A stretch of DNA of 43,156 nucleotides from a virus (lineage: Duplodnaviria > Heunggongvirae > Uroviricota > Caudoviricetes): the IMG/VR virus record IMGVR_UViG_2802429223_000002; one strand, written 5' to 3'. This document shows positions 1 to 37,744 of this stretch, in pieces. The translations under genes were made by a program, and so were the position numbers. Below the pieces are notes generated by a model that saw only the letters and a list, made by a program, of their open reading frames with translations, had not been told where the DNA came from and searched no databases. Positions within the stretch are counted from its first letter, which is position 1. Every line of letters begins with the position of its first letter.

Positions 1-762
1 TCACTGACGTGTTCTTGCCTCAACTACTTTCTGGTATATAGCGATAGCTTCATCAACCAAAGCTAATGGATAGCAAGAATTTATATTCAATCCGGAGGGG
101 CACTTAATTCTTTCTGCTCCACGTTCACTACGCAATTTTTCACACCATTGCCAAAGTTCCTCAACTGAATAGGTATCCAAACCTAACTCCATCAATCGTT
201 GAGGAACACTTCTGAACTGAGACAAATCTCTTAAACTTTCTAACGAGTTAACTTTTAGTTCAACTTGGTTTACTCTACTTTCTAACTCTTCACGTTTTTC
301 TATTTCCATTACCAATGCTTGAACCGTCTGCTGCAGACTGTTAGCAAAAGCACTCAGTTCTGAACGTTCTTGTTTAGGTGGCGGAGGATATACACCAAAT
401 TCACGAATAGACGGAAGGACCTGATGAAAAAGCCAGCGTTGGAATTTTTTCCCCGCAGCAGTAGTATCCTGAGCAAGTACTCTATATAGACCTGGTTCAG
501 TAAGAAATACCTCAGAGATAGTTTCACCATCCACGACAAGAGAAACATTCCTAAACTCATCTGGATCTAAAGTTTTTATTACCGCTCTTATTACAGTGAG
601 CAAGCTTTGAGAAGTCTTTCCATCCAGTTTTCTGTTCTCAGCAGAAAGCGTTCTTAGCACATCTGAAAGTGAAACAAAAATCTGCCCTTTTTCATTCATG
701 CTACGGATATAATTTTCTCCACACTCTCCTTCGTAGCATAATTGTAACAAATTCTTTTGCAC
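1..762 (-). CDS. BRO-N domain protein (phage antirepressor-like) with C-terminal coiled-coil region
   Basis: 253-aa ORF; N-terminal part fits the Bro-N signature as I recall it (GQIFVSLSDV ... PGLYRVLAQ ... FQRWLFHQVLPSIREFGVY); AT-rich; stop codon is window positions 1-3. Confidence 0.6.
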   Translation of the reverse strand: MQKNLLQLCYEGECGENYIRSMNEKGQIFVSLSDVLRTLSAENRKLDGKTSQSLLTVIRAVIKTLDPDEFRNVSLVVDGETISEVFLTEPGLYRVLAQDTTAAGKKFQRWLFHQVLPSIREFGVYPPPPKQERSELSAFANSLQQTVQALVMEIEKREELESRVNQVELKVNSLESLRDLSQFRSVPQRLMELGLDTYSVEELWQWCEKLRSERGAERIKCPSGLNINSCYPLALVDEAIAIYQKVVEARTRQ

Positions 763-1040
763 GCCATCCCCTCCTTTTTTTATGGATTATACATCCTATA
801 AACATGTTGTCACCGAAAGGGAAAAGCATAAACCCAATTTATGTTCCACAAGATGTTCAAAAATCAAACAACCATATAGCTGAGGAGCACAAAAGAGCAA
901 AAGTTTACCAACCCCATATATCCATACAGCACATAAAATTGACACTACATGTGGTATTTTTTAAGTTACGCCTTGCACCATTTCATGATTTTATGTAGAT
1001 TGTCATCACACGCTGAGATTAAAAAATTCTACAATTTTTG

Positions 1041-1069
1041 TTGATCTTGAGTTTGGTTTTTAGTATAAG
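1041..1069 (+). promoter_or_regulatory. candidate sigma70 promoter for the HTH gene (TTGATC, 17-nt spacer, TATAAG)
   Basis: -35-like TTGATC at 1041-1046 and -10-like TATAAG at 1064-1069, about 25 nt upstream of the SD/ATG at 1084-1098. Confidence 0.35.
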
Positions 1070-1095
1070 TGAGCATGGATTGTAGGAGGCGCAAC

Positions 1096-1446
1096 ATGGT
1101 AACTAGCTTTGGTAAGACTCTCAGAAAAATGAGAATAGACCGGGGTATGGTGCTCAAAAATATGGCTGATCTGTTAGGCGTTAGTTCGGCTTACTTATCC
1201 GCCATTGAATTAGGCAAAAGAGCTATACCGGACTCATTAGTAAATACGATTGCAACAACTTTTGAGCTTAGCGGACAAGACATCATCAATCTCAAGAAAC
1301 AGGCAGAGATTTCTCAACCGTCCATTAAGGTTGATATGTCGGATGCAAATGAGCAGAACAAAGAACTAATGCTTGTTTTTGCTCGTAAATTTAAGGACCT
1401 GAGTCCAGAGCAACTCGATAAGCTTAATAAAATGTTAAAGGACTGA
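1096..1446 (+). CDS. XRE-family helix-turn-helix transcriptional regulator
   Basis: HTH_XRE signature (LRKMRIDRGMVLKNMADLLGVSSAYLSAIELGKR); ATG 1096 chosen because AGGAGG lies 6 nt upstream (ORF track starts at GTG 1069); stop is 3 nt before the next gene. Confidence 0.8.
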   Translation: MVTSFGKTLRKMRIDRGMVLKNMADLLGVSSAYLSAIELGKRAIPDSLVNTIATTFELSGQDIINLKKQAEISQPSIKVDMSDANEQNKELMLVFARKFKDLSPEQLDKLNKMLKD

Positions 1447-1449
1447 ATA

Positions 1450-1983
1450 ATGATTGCGAAACGAGAACTTGGCCATCGCGTTTCACCTCTCAGCACCAGC
1501 ATGATTAAATCATACGCTCATCGTCTGAGAGACGTTCTTCAGATATCAAATCACACATATCTGAGACTGGATGTATTACTAGAAGGTCTTATGGCCTCAG
1601 AAAGCATTGAGCTAGAAATTGTTGAAGATCATGAACTGCCCAAACGCTATGCAGTGACTTATCCAGATAAGAACAAAATTGTTTTACAGCGATCTGTTTA
1701 CGATGCAGTGTGCAATGGTGAGAACCATGCGAGATTCACTGTTGCGCATGAACTTGGTCATTTAGTCATGCATCGCAATCAAAGTATCTATGCACGTAAT
1801 AAGACTAGTGGAGGGCATAAAATCTATGAAGACAGCGAATGGCAAGCAGATGTTTTTGCAAGCCACTTCTTAATTGACTCAAGACTAGTTTTGCCCACAA
1901 TGACTGTTGAAGATATAAGCAAAACATTTGGTGTCAGTCAACAAGCGGCTGAAACCTGGATGAGAAAAAATGCAAAAAGATAA
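1450..1983 (+). CDS. ImmA/IrrE-family zinc metallopeptidase
   Basis: HEXXH motif in FTVAHELGHLVMH plus downstream EWQADVFASHFL, typical of ImmA/IrrE peptidases; tightly coupled to the preceding HTH gene. Confidence 0.8.
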   Translation: MIAKRELGHRVSPLSTSMIKSYAHRLRDVLQISNHTYLRLDVLLEGLMASESIELEIVEDHELPKRYAVTYPDKNKIVLQRSVYDAVCNGENHARFTVAHELGHLVMHRNQSIYARNKTSGGHKIYEDSEWQADVFASHFLIDSRLVLPTMTVEDISKTFGVSQQAAETWMRKNAKR

Positions 1984-1989
1984 CGAAAA

Positions 1990-2014
1990 AGCCAGCGAAC
2001 CGCTGTCGCTGGCT
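1990..2014. terminator. hairpin downstream of the HTH-peptidase operon
   Basis: 9-bp perfect stem AGCCAGCGA / TCGCTGGCT with 7-nt loop; A-run on 5' side, weak T-tract on 3' side. Confidence 0.4.
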
Positions 2015-2108
2015 TCTCCTATCGTAAGCAAATACGAAAAACTTGGCGGTTGTGAGTATACGCTTACCTTAGGTTTTGTCAACAGCGAAACTTTACAGGT
2101 AACACGAT

Positions 2109-2252
2109 ATGACCATTGAAAAAGCTGTATCTGAGGAATACATCACAATTTACCGTCCTTTTATTACGGTCAAAGGTAAACGGATCTTTGCTCGTCAAAA
2201 AGGCTTGGCAGCCTTTCCTATCAAAATTCCTGCCTCTAAGTATCGAGGATAA
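2109..2252 (+). CDS. possible small ORF (47 aa, basic C-terminus)
   Basis: ATG 2109 to TAA 2250-2252, MTIEKAVSEEYITIYRPFITVKGKRIFARQKGLAAFPIKIPASKYRG; weak RBS; not in ORF track (under 60 aa); may be a gene remnant. Confidence 0.2.
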   Translation: MTIEKAVSEEYITIYRPFITVKGKRIFARQKGLAAFPIKIPASKYRG

Positions 2253-2454
2253 TCTTTGCTAATCTTAGGCCCTTTTCTAGGGCCTTTTATTACACTTCTG
2301 TTACGCGCACCACAGATAGAGTTTCAGCTAAAACTTTTGTTCATACCTAGGAGTCTGCTGACGAGTGGTTTGTTCACTAATAAACACGTAAAAACGGTAA
2401 CGGCTGGACATCATTCAATATTCGCACTATTGGAAGTTCACCAGCCAGCCACAG

Positions 2455-2500
2455 CACGTTCTTGCATACAACGTGCCTGCGGTTTTTGAGACCGGTCCGA
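2455..2500 (+). terminator. terminator-like hairpin plus T5, degenerate copy of the element at 3469-3512
   Basis: GCACGT...ACGTGC stem extended by CAG/CTG, then GGTTTTT; about 80 percent identical to the hairpin after the GIY-YIG gene. Confidence 0.35.
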
Positions 2501-2577
2501 TCATCAAACGAAACATAAAATTAGCTCACACTATGAGGAAAAGTATCTTTTTTTACTATGTAAATTCAAAGAATTAG

Positions 2578-3447
<870 letters not shown>

Positions 3448-3468
3448 GTCTTTAAGTGATAAGCATAA

Positions 3469-3512
3469 ACCGCAGCACGTCATGCATACGTCGTGTCTGC
3501 GGTTTTTCTTTT
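3469..3512. terminator. bidirectional rho-independent terminator between convergent GIY-YIG gene and tfa
   Basis: CCGCAG...CTGCGG stem with extended pairing, followed by TTTTTCTTTTTT on plus strand and an A/T run on the other side. Confidence 0.6.
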
Positions 3513-3516
3513 TTGC

Positions 3517-4101
3517 TTACACGGTGTCTGGTTCTTCTGGCCACTCAATATCAGGTGCAGTTGATGTATCAACACGGTTCAGCAACACCCGATACTTCTT
3601 CCAGGCTTCCAGCAACGAGGTTTCTTCCTCCGTTGCAATTTCCAGATCTGCAGCATCCTGAAGCGGCGCAATATGCTCACTGGCTACCTGCATCAGGTTG
3701 TTTTTTGTTTCTTCCGCCTCCCGGATCCGGAACAGTTTTTCTGCTTCCGTATCCTTCACCCAGGCTGTGCCGTTCCACTTCTGAAACTCCCCTTCCGGCG
3801 ATAACCAGGTAACATTTTCCGGTAACGGACCGAGTTCAGAAATAAATAACGCGTCGCCGGAAGCCACGTCATAAACCGTTTTACCCCGATGATCTTCAAC
3901 GAGATGCCACGATGACTCATCACTGTTGAAAACAGCCACGAAGCCAGCCGGAATATCTGGCGGTGCAATATCGGTACTGTTTGCAGGCAGACCTGTATGA
4001 GGTGGAATATATGCGTCACCTTCACCAATAAATTCATTAGTTCCGGCCAGCAGATTATAAATTTTTATGGTCCGTGGTTGTTCACTCATTCTGAATGCCA
4101 T
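3517..4101 (-). CDS. tfa: tail fiber assembly protein Tfa
   Basis: 194 aa, near-identical along its length to lambda Tfa as I recall it ([44 protein letters not shown]...). Confidence 0.95.
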
Positions 4102-7061
4102 TATGCAAGCCTCACAATGTAGTTAAATGCGATGTTTTTGACGGTGTTTTCCGCGTTACCAGCAGCGTTAACGGTGATGGTGTGTCCATGTGAGCCAATC
4201 GCAACAGAGTGCGTATGAGCACCAATACCGACAGTATGCGCGTGTGCACCTGCAGATGCTGCTGTGCCGGACAGTGAGTGGCTATGATTACCATCTGTAC
4301 TGGTATTAGCTAACCACCCCGTAGACATACCTACTGAGCCTTGTACCCCCCAGGTATTTTGACCTGAGCTTGTATAACCATATTGATAAGTATCTTTAAA
4401 AACACTGGGGTTAAATCGACGGCCATCTCTATGGCTGTGATTACCAGCTGCATTCGTGCTGCCACTTAAACTATGGGTATGCGCCCCGGTGTTATTCGTG
4501 GATTTAGTGCCGTAATCAAACGACGATGTGGTTTTCGTACCCAAATCCGTACTGGATGCGCTGGCGCTGTGGGTGTGCGATTTAATGCCGTCCTGTTCCT
4601 GAGACAATACGGCACGACCACTGGCGGGTTTGCCCTTAATCGTCCAGCCACGCATATCAGGGATCACGCCTGACGGATAAGCGGCTGCAAGTTTCGGGTA
4701 TGCAGATTTGTCAAAAGTCTGCCCCTGCATCAGGGCATAGCCAGACGGAACGGTATCTGATGGCCACGGGATTGGTGCGCCAGGCGGATAAAACTGCTCT
4801 GATGGCGTATAGAGTGAATAAACTGTACCGTCCGTTAACCCTTCCGGCTTATTAGCAGAATATGCTGGTGACGTATGAATCGTCACGCTGGCATTACTGG
4901 TATAATCCCATTGAATATTTACACCAGTCGCATAATTTCCGATTGCAACGTAAATATCGTAAGTATCACCAGATGTATTGACCCAGGCAAAATTTGTAAA
5001 CCCTGTCGATGTGCGCTGCCATAAAGCACCAGTAATCCCCTTCGGATTACCATTACCTGCACGTAAAACAAGTTCAGATATACCTGCCTGTTGAGGTGAC
5101 CCCACGTTAAATCCAGCGCCACCAATCAACGTAATTGAAACAACAGAACTCGCCTGTGGCATGGTTACCGTTGCTAATTTGAACCAACCAGCACCACCGC
5201 TGAATGACATTGTTGTTGAGTTAAGCGTACCAATATCTTTCGGCGTCAGTGTTATATCCGCTGAAAGCGCCTTACCATTCACCTTACGGGCAGAAGGTAC
5301 CCGACCATTCGCATTGTCATTAGCTGCTTTCACTGCTTTCGGTGTCGCAGCAAGCGTTTCAGATGTGCTGTTGGTTGCACTACTGAGCTGGACAATTCCT
5401 TTTTGTGCTGTCGTAGCGTCCTGTGCGGTGTATTTCCCGTTAGCCAGGTCATACGCGGCCTTAACGGCTTTTGGCGTTGCCGCCTGTGACTCGGAAGTGC
5501 TGTTAGTCGCACTGCTGAGCTGAACTATCCCTTTCTGTGCTGTCGTTGCATCCTGTGCGGTGTATTTCCCGTTAGCCAGGTCATACGCGGCCTTAACGGC
5601 TTTTGGCGTTGCCGCCTGTGACTCGGAAGTGCTGTTGGTCGCACTGCTGAGCTGTACTATCCCCTTTTTCGTCGTGCTCGCATCCTCAAGCGCCACGGCG
5701 GATGCAATATCCTCTGCCCGTTTTGCTGCTGTCTCGGCGCGCGTTGCCGCGGATTCCGCCGTACTTTTGCTCTGTGCTGCCGCTGCCGCACTGCCAGCAG
5801 CCTCTGTCGCCTTCGTGGATGCCGTCGTGGCGCTGCCCCTCGCTGCTGACGCCTGTCTGGTCGCCTCATCTTTTGAAGCAGACGCAGATGATGCCGATGA
5901 CGCCGCCGAACTGGCGGACGATGCGGCAGCCGTTTTTGAGGATTCTGCGCTGGTTTCCGACGCTTTCGCGTTCGTTTCGGATGTCTTCGCTGCGGAAGCA
6001 GACCTCGCTGCTGCGCTGGCCTGTTCAGTGGCTTCGCCAGCCTTCGTTGTGGCTGTTGAAGCGGATGATGCGGCGCTTTCTGCCGATTTTCCGGCGGCGG
6101 TGGCACTGACTGCTGCCTCCTCTGCCTTAATGGACGCCTCACGGGCCGATGATGCAGCTGCTGTCTCAGAGTCTGCCGCAGCTGAGGCGCTCTGTTCCGC
6201 TGCCGTTTCAGAAGACCTGGCATTCGTCTCGGACGTTTTTGCCGCCTTCACGGAATTTCCTGCCGCCGTTGCCGAGGAGGCTGCACTGCTGGCGCTTGTG
6301 GAGGCGTTCGTTTCTGATGATTTTGCCGCCTCTTTGGAGGCCGCCGCATCTCTGGCTGAAGTGGCGGCTTCTGACGCTTTCGTCGTCGCAGTGGATGCAG
6401 AAGTGGCTGCTGATTTTTGTGACGCTGCAGCATTCGTTTCTGACGTTTTCGCCGCACCGGCACTGGTGGCCGCCGCGCTTTTTGAGGACTCTGCAGCGGC
6501 AGCACTTTTTGATGCTTCAGTGGCCTTTGTTGATGCCGTTCCTGCGCTGGAAGACGCCTCCTGAGCCGAAGTCGCGGCCTGTCCGGCTGACGTGCTGGCT
6601 GCACGCGCTGAGCCTGCAGCATCAGTCGCATGGGTTGCCGCCTCACGGGCAGATGTGCCGGCATCACTGGCTGACTTCTTCGCGGCTGCCGTGTTCTGTG
6701 CCACCGCGGACGCGTTACGCGTCACCTCTTCCACCATCAGTTCAAAACGGCGCAGAGCCTCCGGACGGGCATCATCCTCCGTCATGGCACCGAGAAAATC
6801 ATTCAGCGTACCGGGTCGGGAATCTTCATACACGGTGATGGTCCCGGCATGTGACGGCGGGAATCCTTCCACCAACAGAATAACGCTGTACTGACCGTAC
6901 TCAACGTCCATGCTGTAACGCCCGGCTTCATCCGGATTTTCTGAGGCCAGCGTGTTCACCACCACCGTGGTGCTGTTACGTTTTGCTTTCAGCTGGATTG
7001 TGCAGTTCTGTACCGGTTTTCCTGTGCCGTCTTTCAGTACACCTGAAATCTTTACTGCCAT
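4101..7061 (-). CDS. stf: side tail fiber protein Stf with expanded internal repeats
   Basis: N-terminus [32 protein letters not shown] matches lambda Stf; long Ala/Ser-rich region; ATG 7059-7061 preferred over GTG 7067. Confidence 0.9.
5275..5670. repeat. three tandem ~132-bp repeats inside stf (two near-perfect, one degenerate)
   Basis: DNA repeat visible by eye; encodes [44 protein letters not shown] three times. Confidence 0.85.
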
Positions 7062-7072
7062 ATTCACCCCAC

Positions 7073-28675: not shown

Positions 28676-29224
28676 ATGGCGAACAATCTTTTTTATACAC
28701 TTGACAGGCAGCGCACACTGAAGTCAGGCATGAAAATTGAATTAGCAGAACCGTACTGCCCAATCGTTCCACTTCAGGCTCATACGAGCTCATTGTTTTC
28801 CGACGGTGTATCCCGGCATGCAAATAATCTTTTTTTCAACTACCACATAAACCTCGTCAGCTCAGACGAACGATTTGGAGCAATAATAGAAATACTACTG
28901 GAAGAACGAAGGAAATCACACTTCCCTGAAAAACCATCGCGCTTCCAATCAATTTTTGCATGTGAGTCTGTAAAAGAAACCGCCTGGTTCAGAGGCTTTT
29001 CAAAATCCCCACTTGACACCCCAATATTTCAAGTCAGCTCATCGTCGAACTATCATAGAGGTGATATGAATTTGTTAAATCTGAACTGCTCCCCAGTAGA
29101 AGTATCTCAGAGGCTGGATCTTTACTGGAAGGGTGAAACAACACAGATTTACGAAGGGTATCAACCATTCTGGGAAGTGCTCATTCCATTGCCAGTTATT
29201 ATTGGTGAAAGAATTATCGAATAA
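28676..29224 (+). CDS. hypothetical protein (Q-S island gene 1)
   Basis: 182 aa, AGGAA SD before ATG; AT-rich; antisense to the late transcript; no family recognised. Confidence 0.55.
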   Translation: MANNLFYTLDRQRTLKSGMKIELAEPYCPIVPLQAHTSSLFSDGVSRHANNLFFNYHINLVSSDERFGAIIEILLEERRKSHFPEKPSRFQSIFACESVKETAWFRGFSKSPLDTPIFQVSSSSNYHRGDMNLLNLNCSPVEVSQRLDLYWKGETTQIYEGYQPFWEVLIPLPVIIGERIIE

Positions 29225-29567: not shown

Positions 29568-30452
29568 ATGAAATGCATCCGAAAACATCCAGCAATAGCT
29601 TATACAGTAATTATTTTAGTTTTTGCCTTAATATACAATTTCACTTGGAGCGTCAATCCAGATTCTTTCATTAAAAACAACGTTCTCAACTCTACACCTG
29701 TATATGATGCCGTTAATTTAGCATATGCGAACAATGAGGTAAAAAAAGAAGCTCCTGTCAGTGTTTCGAGGGAAGTATTTGCAGAGCAAATTTTAACACT
29801 TACAAATCAATTCAATAAGATAATAATTGAAAACTTAGAACTTGAAAAAACATTATCTCAGCAGCAAGAAAAATTAAAACAAATTAGTGAAAGACAATCA
29901 ATAAAGTGGGGCGAAAACACCAAAAAATACATAGCAGACAGTTTGAAAGATTTACACAAAACGCTTATCACTAAAAATAGTGAACGTACTGCCATAGCAT
30001 CTTTAAAAAACAAAACAAATGAAAGTCAGATTAACATTATGCTGGCCGACAAAGATGAAGAAATAGCCAAAATAAACCTTGAAATAGCGTATAAAGAGAA
30101 TGATGCTAATGTCTATATCTTATCTCATGTCGGCGACTTTAACGATCCAATAATCGTTAATGAGCTTGACGCAATCAATAAAGAAATTGAGAAAACAAGA
30201 ACAAAAATAATAAACAATAAAAAGAAAATAATGGAGATAAGGAGTAAATCTCAATCTATGCTGGAGAAACTCAAAAAAGATGACCTTAACTTTTGGGATT
30301 TCTTATTTTATAGCATAGGAATATCTACAACGACCACCTTTGGTGATTTGTTAGCAAATTCAAGACTTATCAGACTGATAGTTTGCGTGCAACTTTTACT
30401 ATCAATTATAGTTTTAGCTAACGTAACTCAAAGATTTTTATCAAAAAAATAA
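29568..30452 (+). CDS. membrane protein: N-terminal TM helix, long coiled-coil, C-terminal pore-loop-like motif (Q-S island gene 3)
   Basis: 294 aa; TM segment AIAYTVIILVFALIYNFTW; Lys/Glu-rich heptad region; C-terminus FLFYSIGISTTTTFGDL then hydrophobic helix RLIVCVQLLLSIIVLANV; very AT-rich. Confidence 0.55.
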   Translation: MKCIRKHPAIAYTVIILVFALIYNFTWSVNPDSFIKNNVLNSTPVYDAVNLAYANNEVKKEAPVSVSREVFAEQILTLTNQFNKIIIENLELEKTLSQQQEKLKQISERQSIKWGENTKKYIADSLKDLHKTLITKNSERTAIASLKNKTNESQINIMLADKDEEIAKINLEIAYKENDANVYILSHVGDFNDPIIVNELDAINKEIEKTRTKIINNKKKIMEIRSKSQSMLEKLKKDDLNFWDFLFYSIGISTTTTFGDLLANSRLIRLIVCVQLLLSIIVLANVTQRFLSKK

Positions 30453-36130: not shown

Positions 36131-36817
36131 GTGAAAACACTGGCAGAACGATTAAAGATAGGTAGAGAGAAAGCTGGCATGAGCCAAGCTCAACTAGCTG
36201 AAAAAATTGGACTTTCACAACAATCTGTAGCCAAAATAGAGAATGGCGAAACTCTACAACCGCGCAAAATTAAAGAAATTGCAAAAGTTTTAGGTGTATC
36301 ACAAAAGTGGTTACAACTTGGTATTGAAGACAACGCATCCATACCTGATCTTGTTGTAAAAGAAGCAGAAAGCACCGCATTAGACCCCGATATTTTCGTA
36401 AACATTCCTGTTTTAGATGTCGAGTTATCGGCAGGTAACGGATGTCTGGCTGAAATAGTTGAATCAGCTATTGACTGGTTTCCGTTAAGAAGAGCAGATT
36501 TGAGAAAATCTGGCGTATGTGCATCTAATGCCAAGATCGTAAAAATATGGGGGAACAGTTTATTACCAGTTCTCAATAATGGAGATCTTGTTGCCGTTGA
36601 TATTTCTCAAACCGTTCCTATTCGTGATGGCGATCTTTATGCCGTACGAGATGGTGTATTGCTAAGGGTTAAAATACTTATCAACTTACCTGACGGTGGC
36701 TTGATTCTTAGAAGCTTCAACAAAGATGAGTACCCAGATGAAATACTCACCTTTGAAGATAGACGAGCCAGAATTCATGTTATAGGTAGGGTATTCTGGT
36801 CATCGCGAACTTGGTAA
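36131..36817 (+). CDS. CI-like prophage repressor (HTH_XRE N-terminus, S24 LexA-like peptidase C-terminus)
   Basis: GTG start with AGAGAGGG SD; HTH (MSQAQLAEKIGLSQQSVAKIENGE) and C-terminal S24-like autocleavage domain. Confidence 0.85.
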   Translation: MKTLAERLKIGREKAGMSQAQLAEKIGLSQQSVAKIENGETLQPRKIKEIAKVLGVSQKWLQLGIEDNASIPDLVVKEAESTALDPDIFVNIPVLDVELSAGNGCLAEIVESAIDWFPLRRADLRKSGVCASNAKIVKIWGNSLLPVLNNGDLVAVDISQTVPIRDGDLYAVRDGVLLRVKILINLPDGGLILRSFNKDEYPDEILTFEDRRARIHVIGRVFWSSRTW

Positions 36818-37690
36818 TGCATCGAAAAGCATTTCTTCAGAAATAATTTTAAGTTTTGCACCATTATCATCCCTATAAGATATAGCTTTTTCGATCTTCC
36901 TTCCGTGACTTGAGAATTTCCAATCACGGGAGGAAAGCGTCCCAATTACTAAAAAATCCAACTTTTGAGTAATTCCACTACTGATGTTCCCACCAGCATT
37001 TTTAATCAAATTTTCAACTACGGCTCTCTTTCCTGCAACAAAAGTGCCTGTAAGACAATAGGTTTTACCCTCTAACTCTATCGAAGCCCCTACATCAATA
37101 GGCAGCCTGGTCGCCAAACCATCCACCACCCCACTTTCCAAGTCACATCCTGTGAAGTCTACTAATGCCTTATGTAGAGTTAAACTCTCATCTTCAGTAA
37201 TAACCCCATCTTTAAGAATTTCCTTTACAAGTGCATAAAGTTTTTTTCCTGGGTAGTTGTTCTTCAAAGCTCCATTTTGCTCAAGCCACCAATTAAGATA
37301 TCTTATTTCTTCTTGAGTTAAGTTCCGATCAGCAATTAATCCTTTACATAGTCCATTAAGTAAATGGACATCTACATCCTTGGAGTAAAAATCAATTTCA
37401 GGGATATCAAGAATTTCCCTCTGTATTTGGAGAAGGCTATTTTTAAGGTCATCACGTTCTTCTGATGTGATTATTCCATCCGCAAGAATATCCGACACCC
37501 GTGCTGATAGACTTTTTATAACTCCATTATTGATAATCTGCTTTGCTTCAAGTACCCATGTATCTAAGTAAAGAACCTCCTCTTCACGGACAACTCCATC
37601 TGCAATGATTCCATCAATGATGCTAATCAAGTTAGCAAATAACTTGTCCCGGTTCTGTGTGTAATTAAAAGCGTAAAGCGCGTCTTCCAT
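36800..37690 (-). CDS. tandem-repeat protein with C-terminal BRCT-like domain (rex-slot cargo gene)
   Basis: 296 aa from ATG 37690 (AGGAGG SD); four ~40-aa repeats (IADGVVREEEVLYL / LADGIITSEERDDL / IADRNLTQEEIRYL / LKDGVITEDESLTL) then GKTYCLTGTFVAGKRAVVENLIKNAGGNISSGITQKLDFLVIG, which resembles NAD-ligase BRCT domains; AT-rich. Confidence 0.6.
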   Translation of the reverse strand: MEDALYAFNYTQNRDKLFANLISIIDGIIADGVVREEEVLYLDTWVLEAKQIINNGVIKSLSARVSDILADGIITSEERDDLKNSLLQIQREILDIPEIDFYSKDVDVHLLNGLCKGLIADRNLTQEEIRYLNWWLEQNGALKNNYPGKKLYALVKEILKDGVITEDESLTLHKALVDFTGCDLESGVVDGLATRLPIDVGASIELEGKTYCLTGTFVAGKRAVVENLIKNAGGNISSGITQKLDFLVIGTLSSRDWKFSSHGRKIEKAISYRDDNGAKLKIISEEMLFDALPSSR

Positions 37691-37744
37691 ACAACCTCCT
37701 TTTTTTGATAATCCTTGCACTCCTTGGCTACTCGTTCAAACCAC

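Follow-up and report, generated by a model that had tools for sequence, protein, structure and literature searches.

An HTH regulator and ImmA/IrrE-type metallopeptidase pair of an Escherichia coli prophage and its conserved small-protein partner

Genes of the cassette

The virus record IMGVR_UViG_2802429223_000002 (the whole stretch of 43,156 nucleotides (nt) analysed here, referred to as the window) is a complete lambdoid prophage of Escherichia coli, and its tail-fibre/attachment-site end, window 1-2290, carries a cassette organized around a helix-turn-helix (HTH) regulator gene and an ImmA/IrrE-type metallopeptidase gene. A preliminary description, made from the sequence alone, had recognized these two genes as a pair transcribed divergently from a BRO-N gene (1-762, minus strand) and lying upstream of a GIY-YIG gene (2674-3447), and this layout was recovered in full. 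Positions 700-3500 are 100% identical to E. coli NS-NP030 and other strains, and RefSeq gives the same four genes under the same names in the 100%-identical E. coli genomes. All four proteins score above the curated Pfam thresholds. From the HTH gene onwards, the cassette comprises the following features:

1096-1446, plus strand: XRE-family HTH protein, 116 amino acids (aa); ATG at 1096, stop at 1446
1450-1983, plus strand: short ImmA/IrrE (M78) zinc metallopeptidase, 177 aa, lacking a GAF domain (Pfam, AlphaFold2, Foldseek)
1982-2048, minus strand: predicted antisense small RNA, ~65 nt, its ends deduced from promoter and terminator
1985-2019, minus strand: intrinsic terminator (hairpin plus T-run) with a 14-pair stem, directly after the peptidase stop
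2055-2082, minus strand: promoter TTGACA-16-TATACT facing the hairpin, 11/12 consensus match
2109-2252, plus strand: small basic protein, 47 aa (MTIEKAVSEEYITIYRPFITVKGKRIFARQKGLAAFPIKIPASKYRG), with homologues at a fixed position after the peptidase
2267-2285, plus strand: intrinsic terminator closing the cassette, with an equivalent hairpin in the phage LLS and Salmonella copies

The HTH protein and the peptidase, whose open reading frame (ORF) begins 3 nt past the HTH stop and carries the HEXXH-type motif AHELGHLVMH, were found with the lengths, spacing and positions first described, as was the strong Shine-Dalgarno sequence (GGAGG at 1084-1088, seven bases 5' of the HTH ATG). Assignment of the first protein to the XRE family is borne out by the Pfam profile HTH_19 (E = 2.9e-9), by HTH_31 and HTH_3, which exceed their cut-offs, and by a best PADLOC match to capH (1.2e-10). 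A nine-member alignment divides it into an N-terminal HTH, a conserved SQP(S/T)(I/L)KVD linker and a C-terminal helical region.

The ImmA/IrrE identity of the second protein holds equally. Peptidase_M78 (PF06114) matches with E = 2.8e-11 and 43.7 bits against a cut-off of 22, placing the protein in the M78 family, while H100, E101, H104 and E130, referring to the HExxH motif and the downstream Glu ligand, are invariant across 38 homologues. The AlphaFold2 model (predicted local distance difference test, pLDDT, 91) stops after an HTH-like linker, and its top Foldseek matches are CapP, IrrE and PprI. The best PADLOC match is capP (5e-15), covering positions 31-146 of 242 only, and the PDB profile match spans only residues 81-181 of the 291 of CapP. 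No match to the PD-lambda-2 models was found by PADLOC in the cassette. The sole low-confidence part of the model (pLDDT ~55) is the loop of residues 108-124, leading from the HExxH helix to the third zinc ligand, which sits where CapP has its autoinhibitory cysteine-switch loop; it contains no cysteine and features a well-conserved His directly before YEDSEWQAD.

A third conserved gene encoding a small basic protein

Two conserved parts downstream of the peptidase gene had been overlooked in the preliminary description, namely the 47-aa ORF (orf47) and the antisense-RNA signals in front of it. Homologues of the 47-aa ORF can be recognized after the peptidase gene in very distant loci. An iterated hidden Markov model (HMM) search over all stop-to-stop fragments (six-frame translation) of every related locus recovered the small protein in 88 loci, all on the peptidase strand and 126-300 nt past its stop, with no match elsewhere in the six-frame translation of these loci. 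The HTH protein, the peptidase and the small protein are strictly co-inherited. The small proteins are 35-55 aa long and strongly basic, sharing a core of approximately (Y/W)IFR..IT.K.G.(R/K)IYA.DYGKKAF.I.V. Comparison of the 30-codon core in five enteric copies gave 142 synonymous against 40 non-synonymous codon differences, by which measure the small ORF is under purifying selection.

A profile search of a collection of 5.8 billion proteins returned 527 clusters, none of them named and one carrying a single precomputed Pfam tag (PF19238), and the small protein had no match in Pfam, PHROGs, NCBIfam or PADLOC. In the contigs of three small-protein clusters, each locus consisted of an HTH gene, an M78 gene, a gap of ~170-220 nt and the small ORF; in a Phenylobacterium locus reached by this reverse search, the HTH and peptidase genes themselves were uncalled. 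The AlphaFold2 model of the small protein shows four short strands with a core pLDDT of ~90. Another candidate, a 49-aa ORF at 1970-2119 (plus strand) listed by RefSeq as hypothetical, was rejected: its only conserved stretch is the hairpin DNA and the protein is not conserved in locus L099, which makes it a probable non-coding ORF.

Antisense-RNA signals in the spacer

The spacer between the peptidase gene and the small ORF carries a promoter and a terminator on the minus strand, and from these signals the existence of an antisense RNA is probable. All seven loci compared retain the hairpin stem, the Providencia copy by means of another sequence, and the promoter is identical in the E. coli, Salmonella, LLS, L099 and Serratia loci. 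The fold energy of the predicted RNA has a z-score of -3.75. Conservation is higher in the spacer than in the coding DNA on either side, with 111 of 112 positions identical between E. coli and Salmonella, compared with 72 of 90 in the adjoining ORF core.

The strand bias of these signals was tested with 71 non-redundant cassette spacers and 64 control spacers located between other co-directional genes of the same loci:

Terminator-like hairpin: antisense in 55/71 and sense in 9/71 cassette spacers; antisense in 22/64 and sense in 22/64 controls
Sigma-70-like promoter: antisense in 53/71 and sense in 9/71 cassette spacers; antisense in 20/64 and sense in 12/64 controls

The promoter precedes the terminator in 36 loci, giving predicted RNAs of 38-114 nt (median ~76), and an independent tool placed a minus-strand terminator right after the peptidase gene of a Burkholderia phage. 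Searching 600-2800 against Rfam returned a chance-level match only and no family. Two further candidates were discarded. An operator common to the HTH upstream region and the spacer was not upheld, as the mean number of shared 9-mers was 0.97 versus 0.56 for unrelated spacers and were nearly all AT-rich, and a cis pairing of 2021-2026 with the start of orf47, present in the fold of the window, is not conserved in LLS or Salmonella.

Distribution and accessory status

Scanning IMG/VR gave 312 relatives; the loci analysed were selected by peptidase similarity and are mutually related, gene calls on them were crude (longest ORFs), and the HTH protein and the peptidase were each searched with their own HMM. 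In ~100 loci, mostly viral contigs, a family-specific HTH gene of ~118 aa lies directly upstream of a peptidase gene of ~175 aa, a pairing far beyond chance. The comparison of gene neighbourhoods recommended in the preliminary description found the pair itself conserved, with the conserved third partner lying downstream of the peptidase. Among neighbours within 4 kb of 80 loci, only integrases recur (~18 loci) and no other recurrent third gene was found; BRO-N occurs in 4, and an integrase never lies downstream on the same strand as the pair.

In phage LLS, counterparts of BRO-N, the HTH protein and the peptidase are encoded beside attP with 78, 84 and 80% aa identity, respectively, and the same three genes are located at the prophage end in P2-like Salmonella prophages. 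Among more distant homologues, the pair is found without BRO-N in Edwardsiella, Serratia, Providencia, a Rheinheimera Mu-like prophage, a Marinimicrobium island and a Synergistaceae contig. In the lambdoid prophages of Serratia and Providencia it lies reversed amid the nin, Q and lysis genes, the cassette also runs opposite to its neighbours in a Mu-like prophage, and in Clostridia it lies at element borders. P2-like Burkholderia phages have the cassette beside int, one of them with int, HTH and peptidase genes followed by a 43-aa member of the small-protein family. Within E. coli, the cassette occupies different prophage types at different att sites. Isolated phages with the peptidase family comprised only LLS, four Burkholderia phages, four Ralstonia phages and one other E. 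coli phage, and a scan of genome contigs yielded mostly distant relatives and no enteric copies.

The prophage possesses its own CI (HTH_3 plus Peptidase_S24) and Cro at 35.7-36.8 kb; the pair is therefore not its master lysogeny switch, and the cassette is an accessory element (moron). Nor is the pair the master switch in the Serratia, Providencia and Mu-like prophage hosts. In several Clostridia genomes (L178-L180, 2960-4129), the cassette of HTH gene, peptidase gene and small ORF lies directly after host guaA, followed by an integrase-bearing element in two of them and by Toprim/DUF6017 conjugative-element genes in another, suggesting that the cassette at guaA is a marker of, or a survivor at, a hot spot of integration.

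The upstream region and the proposed switch

Three conserved features precede the HTH gene:

973-1001, plus strand: candidate upstream promoter P2, TTGCAC-17-TAGATT, read from the alignment and not listed by the consensus scan
1027-1045, unstranded: imperfect palindrome TTCTACAAtttTTGTTGAT, candidate HTH operator, overlapping the P1 -35
1041-1069, plus strand: promoter P1, TTGATC-17-TATAAG (TTGATC at 1041-1046, TATAAG at 1064-1069)

The P1 promoter sequence had been pointed out in the preliminary description and is indeed present, with both blocks kept in seven related loci; the consensus scan skipped it because its second hexamer ends in G instead of T. The blocks of the putative P2, TTGCA(T/C) and a TAGA(A/T)T-type hexamer, keep a spacing of 16-17 nt in seven loci, including loci without BRO-N, and P2, P1 and the palindrome are together kept in all seven aligned loci. 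The palindrome is the sole match to its pattern in the 43-kb window, and perfect palindromes stand at the same place in the Providencia (TCTACAAATTTTGTAGA) and Serratia (TTCAACAaaaagTGTTGAA) loci. Its position over the P1 -35 fits autoregulation by the HTH protein. Control by LexA was considered and rejected, since the full consensus had 0 matches within 4 kb and CTGT-N8-ACAG with one mismatch had none below position 4259.

The conserved core is best explained as one operon consisting of an HTH repressor gene, a short ImmA-type protease gene, the spacer and the gene of a 47-aa basic beta-protein. In the proposed mechanism, an HTH dimer on the palindrome over the P1 -35 would keep the operon low and autoregulated until the protease is activated by a signal, which by analogy with ImmA, IrrE and CapP is probably linked to DNA damage, RecA or infection. 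The protease would then cut the HTH protein in or after the conserved linker, and operon transcription would rise and pass through the hairpin into the small ORF. A constitutive antisense RNA may impose a second lock or threshold, through interference with transcription, base pairing to the read-through transcript or both, so that the small protein would be made only on transcription bursts. The small protein would be the output, most likely as a growth-arresting or anti-phage effector, and the cassette could be regarded as combining the logic of ImmR/ImmA with the layout of type I toxin-antitoxin loci. To this protease-gated, RNA-locked switch releasing a small protein, the best model as a whole, we assign an even chance.

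A toxin or defence effector is the most economical guess for the small protein, because of the antisense-RNA layout, the mobile end-of-element location and the position beside int in the P2-like phage. The int-adjacent position resembles the P2 defence hot spot reportedly described by Rousset and colleagues (2022). The broader proposal, in which a widespread four-part cassette uses a cleavable repressor and a cis-antisense RNA to gate a new family of basic beta-protein toxins or anti-phage proteins released on damage or infection, is put forward tentatively, as possible though somewhat short of probable.

Several points weigh against the proposed switch. About 20 of 105 family loci lacked the small ORF in this search, a structure search with the small-protein model returned no informative neighbour, and the protein, being basic and rich in beta-structure, lacks the hydrophobic character of classical type I toxins. 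The promoter and terminator calls are pattern matches, consensus promoter calls fail in GC-rich hosts, and the counts exaggerate the independence of the loci, which share ancestry. As no operator words are common to the HTH upstream region and the spacer, expression of the small ORF needs read-through past the hairpin. Furthermore, since the peptidase has no GAF domain, the mechanism by which CapP senses single-stranded DNA (ssDNA) is not simply transferable to it.

BRO-N and two-gene interpretations

Two features lie on the divergent side of the cassette:

1-762, minus strand: BRO-N domain gene, antirepressor-like, 253 aa (Pfam Bro-N E = 2.4e-7; PHROG anti-repressor Ant 4e-17)
786-813, minus strand: promoter-like site for BRO-N, GTGACA-16-TATAAT, 11/12 consensus match, both hexamers kept in LLS

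The alternative that survives best, though unlikely, is a secondary immunity region of the P22 immI/Gifsy-like kind, in which the HTH protein would repress BRO-N and its cleavage would free the antirepressor, leading to inactivation of CI-type repressors and induction of this or co-resident prophages. The cassette site beside tail-fibre genes and dinI resembles known antirepressor loci, namely P22 immI and those reportedly described by Lemire and colleagues (2011). The match to the PHROG antirepressor family is in line with such a role, as is the divergent gene itself, which co-evolves with the pair in E. coli, Salmonella and LLS: the Salmonella loci have this 253-aa gene as well, and its identity to gp30, at the same position in LLS, is 78%, versus 80-84% for the pair. 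Regulatory Bro-Xre pairs were also proposed by Makarova et al. (PMC2701414). Against this, most family members have no BRO-N gene, and the conserved upstream blocks persist in loci lacking it. A distance of ~215 base pairs (bp) separates the BRO-N promoter from the palindrome, of which no further copy was found at that promoter (786-813) or upstream of the GIY-YIG gene in the 43-kb window. Moreover, CI of the prophage has an S24 self-cleavage domain, for which an antirepressor is not needed. Control of BRO-N by the pair, as suggested in the preliminary description, is possible but unsupported, and BRO-N belongs to the cassette only in the enteric clade.

A plain two-gene toxin-antitoxin (TA) or abortive-infection pair of the Xre-COG2856 class, with a toxic peptidase, an HTH protein acting as antitoxin and repressor, and an incidental small ORF and RNA, is judged improbable. 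This class was predicted to be TA-like (PMC2701414), the Xre-peptidase fusion PD-lambda-2B is toxic alone as part of a validated defence system (PMC9519451), and the pair is mobile and patchily distributed. Nonetheless, a small ORF under purifying selection at a fixed distance in 88 loci is hard to call incidental, the PD-lambda-2 models found no counterpart in the cassette, and the stand-alone relatives ImmA, IrrE and CapP act on a partner repressor and are not toxins.

The neighbouring PD-T4-3 gene

The GIY-YIG gene beyond the cassette is a known defence gene, separated from the pair by the plus-strand terminator at 2267-2285 and a dinI-like remnant:

2297-2487, plus strand: 3' remnant of a dinI-like gene plus downstream DNA, forming the right cassette border (tblastn)
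2674-3447 (RefSeq start), plus strand: PD-T4-3/CMoRE GIY-YIG type IV restriction enzyme (PADLOC E = 2.4e-140)

The PADLOC match covers 255 of 256 positions, and Pfam LEM-3_GIY-YIG (2.2e-14) marks an N-terminal GIY-YIG domain. PD-T4-3 was discovered as a single-gene anti-T-even system (PMC9519451) and was later characterized as CMoRE, a type IV endonuclease for DNA containing hydroxymethylcytosine (hmC) and glucosyl-hmC (PMC12923530). In total, 838 of 5426 complete E. coli genomes carry PD-T4-3, compared with 34 carrying the HTH-peptidase pair. Genomes without the pair retain the same ~200 bp upstream of PD-T4-3 (corresponding to window ~2477-2670). In E. coli MS1657, the HTH-peptidase cassette joins the tail-fibre genes directly without PD-T4-3, its homology to the window breaking off at 2487; PD-T4-3 is likewise absent beside the module in phage LLS and in Salmonella prophages. 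PD-T4-3 is a neighbouring, independent cassette (~2477-3450) outside the HTH-peptidase module.

These distributions bear on the proposal that the pair is a CapH/CapP-style damage-responsive regulator of PD-T4-3, raising the nuclease on infection or DNA damage. In its favour are the capH and capP matches, the occurrence of PD-T4-3 directly downstream in 31 of the 34 pair-carrying E. coli genomes, the CapH/CapP-like pairs reported beside diverse defence systems (bioRxiv 10.1101/2022.04.27.489752), and the speculation of a native-host study that PD-T4-3 may be repressed in the host (bioRxiv 10.1101/2024.12.20.629700). It is nevertheless very unlikely given the independent occurrence and upstream region of PD-T4-3, the intervening terminator and dinI remnant, the cassettes without PD-T4-3 and the lack of an operator palindrome in front of it, and an enzyme cutting only hmC DNA presents no obvious need for tight repression (PMC12923530). 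The pair and PD-T4-3 are also co-directional. CapH/CapP operons are divergent in layout. In one Firmicute contig, a cassette is followed at a distance of ~1.4 kb by a gene for a weak LEM-3-like GIY-YIG protein (L182 5562-6233), which could be counted for the proposal; it is the only other such neighbour among the ~100 loci and probably a coincidence. Control of the GIY-YIG gene, as first proposed, is accordingly not supported. The interpretation in the preliminary description is thus supported in part, its gene identities and the general cleavage-switch logic of an XRE repressor and an ImmA/IrrE protease being right, in line with the capH/capP and structure matches.

A relic or borrowed lysogeny switch, i.e. 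the master repressor and protease of another phage lineage kept for immunity to it, is likewise very unlikely. ImmR/ImmA-type pairs are master switches in ICEBs1 and phi105, and an integrase gene occurs within 4 kb in ~18 of 80 loci, both of which speak for it. Against it, a separate repressor/Cro region coexists with the cassette, or the cassette is reversed among late/nin genes, in at least four phage types; the integrase never follows the pair on its own strand, unlike in immR-immA-int, and the cassette has its own terminator.

Comparison with known systems

The protease-gated switch proposed here resembles ImmR/ImmA of ICEBs1 and phi105 in that an XRE repressor gene is followed by that of a short, GAF-less M78 protease in one operon of an integrative element, and by analogy the protease would be expected to cut the repressor on a damage or signalling cue. 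ImmA of ICEBs1 has ~170 aa, and in size and architecture the peptidase resembles ImmA, not CapP. Different from ImmR/ImmA, the pair is not the element's master switch, as the prophage has its own CI/Cro, and the protease gene is followed in the operon by the small-protein gene and antisense-RNA signals instead of an integrase gene. Sequence similarity is at the Pfam-family level only.

CapH/CapP gives the best profile and structure matches (PDB 7t5t) and is likewise a two-gene HTH plus M78 module among defence genes. CapP contains a C-terminal GAF domain and senses ssDNA in the inter-domain groove (PMC13228613), whereas the peptidase here has no GAF domain and ends after the HTH-like linker. 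Moreover, no defence operon is consistently associated with the pair, PD-T4-3 being distributed independently. DdrO/IrrE (PprI) of Deinococcus shares the protease fold (Foldseek template-modelling score ~0.58 for peptidase plus linker) and an XRE substrate with a C-terminal dimerization region; IrrE differs as a chromosomal regulon controller with a GAF domain, being neither part of a mobile cassette nor followed by a small gene.

Makarova, Wolf and Koonin predicted in 2009 that Xre-COG2856 and Bro-Xre pairs regulate a third component, which they left unidentified (PMC2701414). The cassette consists of the same gene classes, with a conserved two-gene operon and a patchy, mobile distribution, while the third components of 2009 were RelE or PIN toxins, usually with a fused Xre-peptidase, rather than a new family of 35-55 aa with an antisense RNA. 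Type I TA systems such as hok/sok, zor/orz and tisB/istR similarly combine a small ORF with a short cis-antisense RNA, here predicted, that has its own promoter and terminator, and they are common in prophages. They are distinct from the cassette in that its small protein is K/R-rich with an all-beta model and no hydrophobic membrane helix, its predicted RNA lies upstream of the ORF rather than over the ribosome-binding site, and its ORF is inside a repressor-protease operon. The gene classes are thus already known, and the small-protein family and the antisense element are undescribed in the literature found.

Few unexplained gene pairs of mobile elements are as common as those of HTH and ImmA/IrrE proteins, and reading such a pair as the regulator of an adjacent gene can mislead: here the nuclease is an independent passenger and the conserved partner is a tiny gene, missed by many of the gene calls examined and by every family database searched. 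Should the switch indeed have the small protein as its output, the three-part Xre-COG2856 systems of the 2009 prediction would gain a concrete third component, and prophage-encoded defence or addiction a new effector family. Approximately 100 phage and element loci are now marked for the same question.

Cassette borders and other features of the prophage

The dinI remnant at the right border matches residues 51-82 of DinI-like proteins with a frame disruption (tblastn), and it also matches the dinI regions of many lambdoid phages. The cassette is flanked by two copies of the dinI-like 3' part plus downstream DNA (window 2297-2487 on one side, L001 19013-19110 or L188 3568-3772 on the other), the left copy being intact in strain MS1657, which suggests entry or movement of the cassette by recombination at prophage dinI loci.

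Beyond window position 1, locus L001 (NZ_AP024126.1, 16798-18784) contains a type IV retron, consisting of an Ec48-family reverse transcriptase and a 2TM effector (PADLOC RT_IV 2.4e-163, 2TM_IV 1.9e-82), located ~0.5 kb past BRO-N between the cassette and host paoD. The retron is a separate insertion, because the genes at this place differ in other E. coli genomes, being an AAA ATPase gene in some and directly ssrA in others.

Elsewhere in the prophage, a 306-aa ORF (36800-37720, minus strand) lies directly downstream of cI in convergent orientation with an 18-nt overlap, in the region of rexAB in lambda; its product has a BRCT domain at the C-terminus (Pfam 1.5e-6) and weakly matches the PADLOC candidate PDC-S48 (2.5e-7). 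The genes at 28676-29224 and 29568-30452 (plus strand), one for a DUF2441 protein and the other for a protein whose C-terminus is ion-channel-like, run against the surrounding minus-strand phage genes and are possibly further morons. The tail-fibre gene (4101-7067, minus strand, 988 aa) features a long Ala/Ser/Thr-rich low-complexity region and three near-identical tandem copies of a ~45-aa segment.

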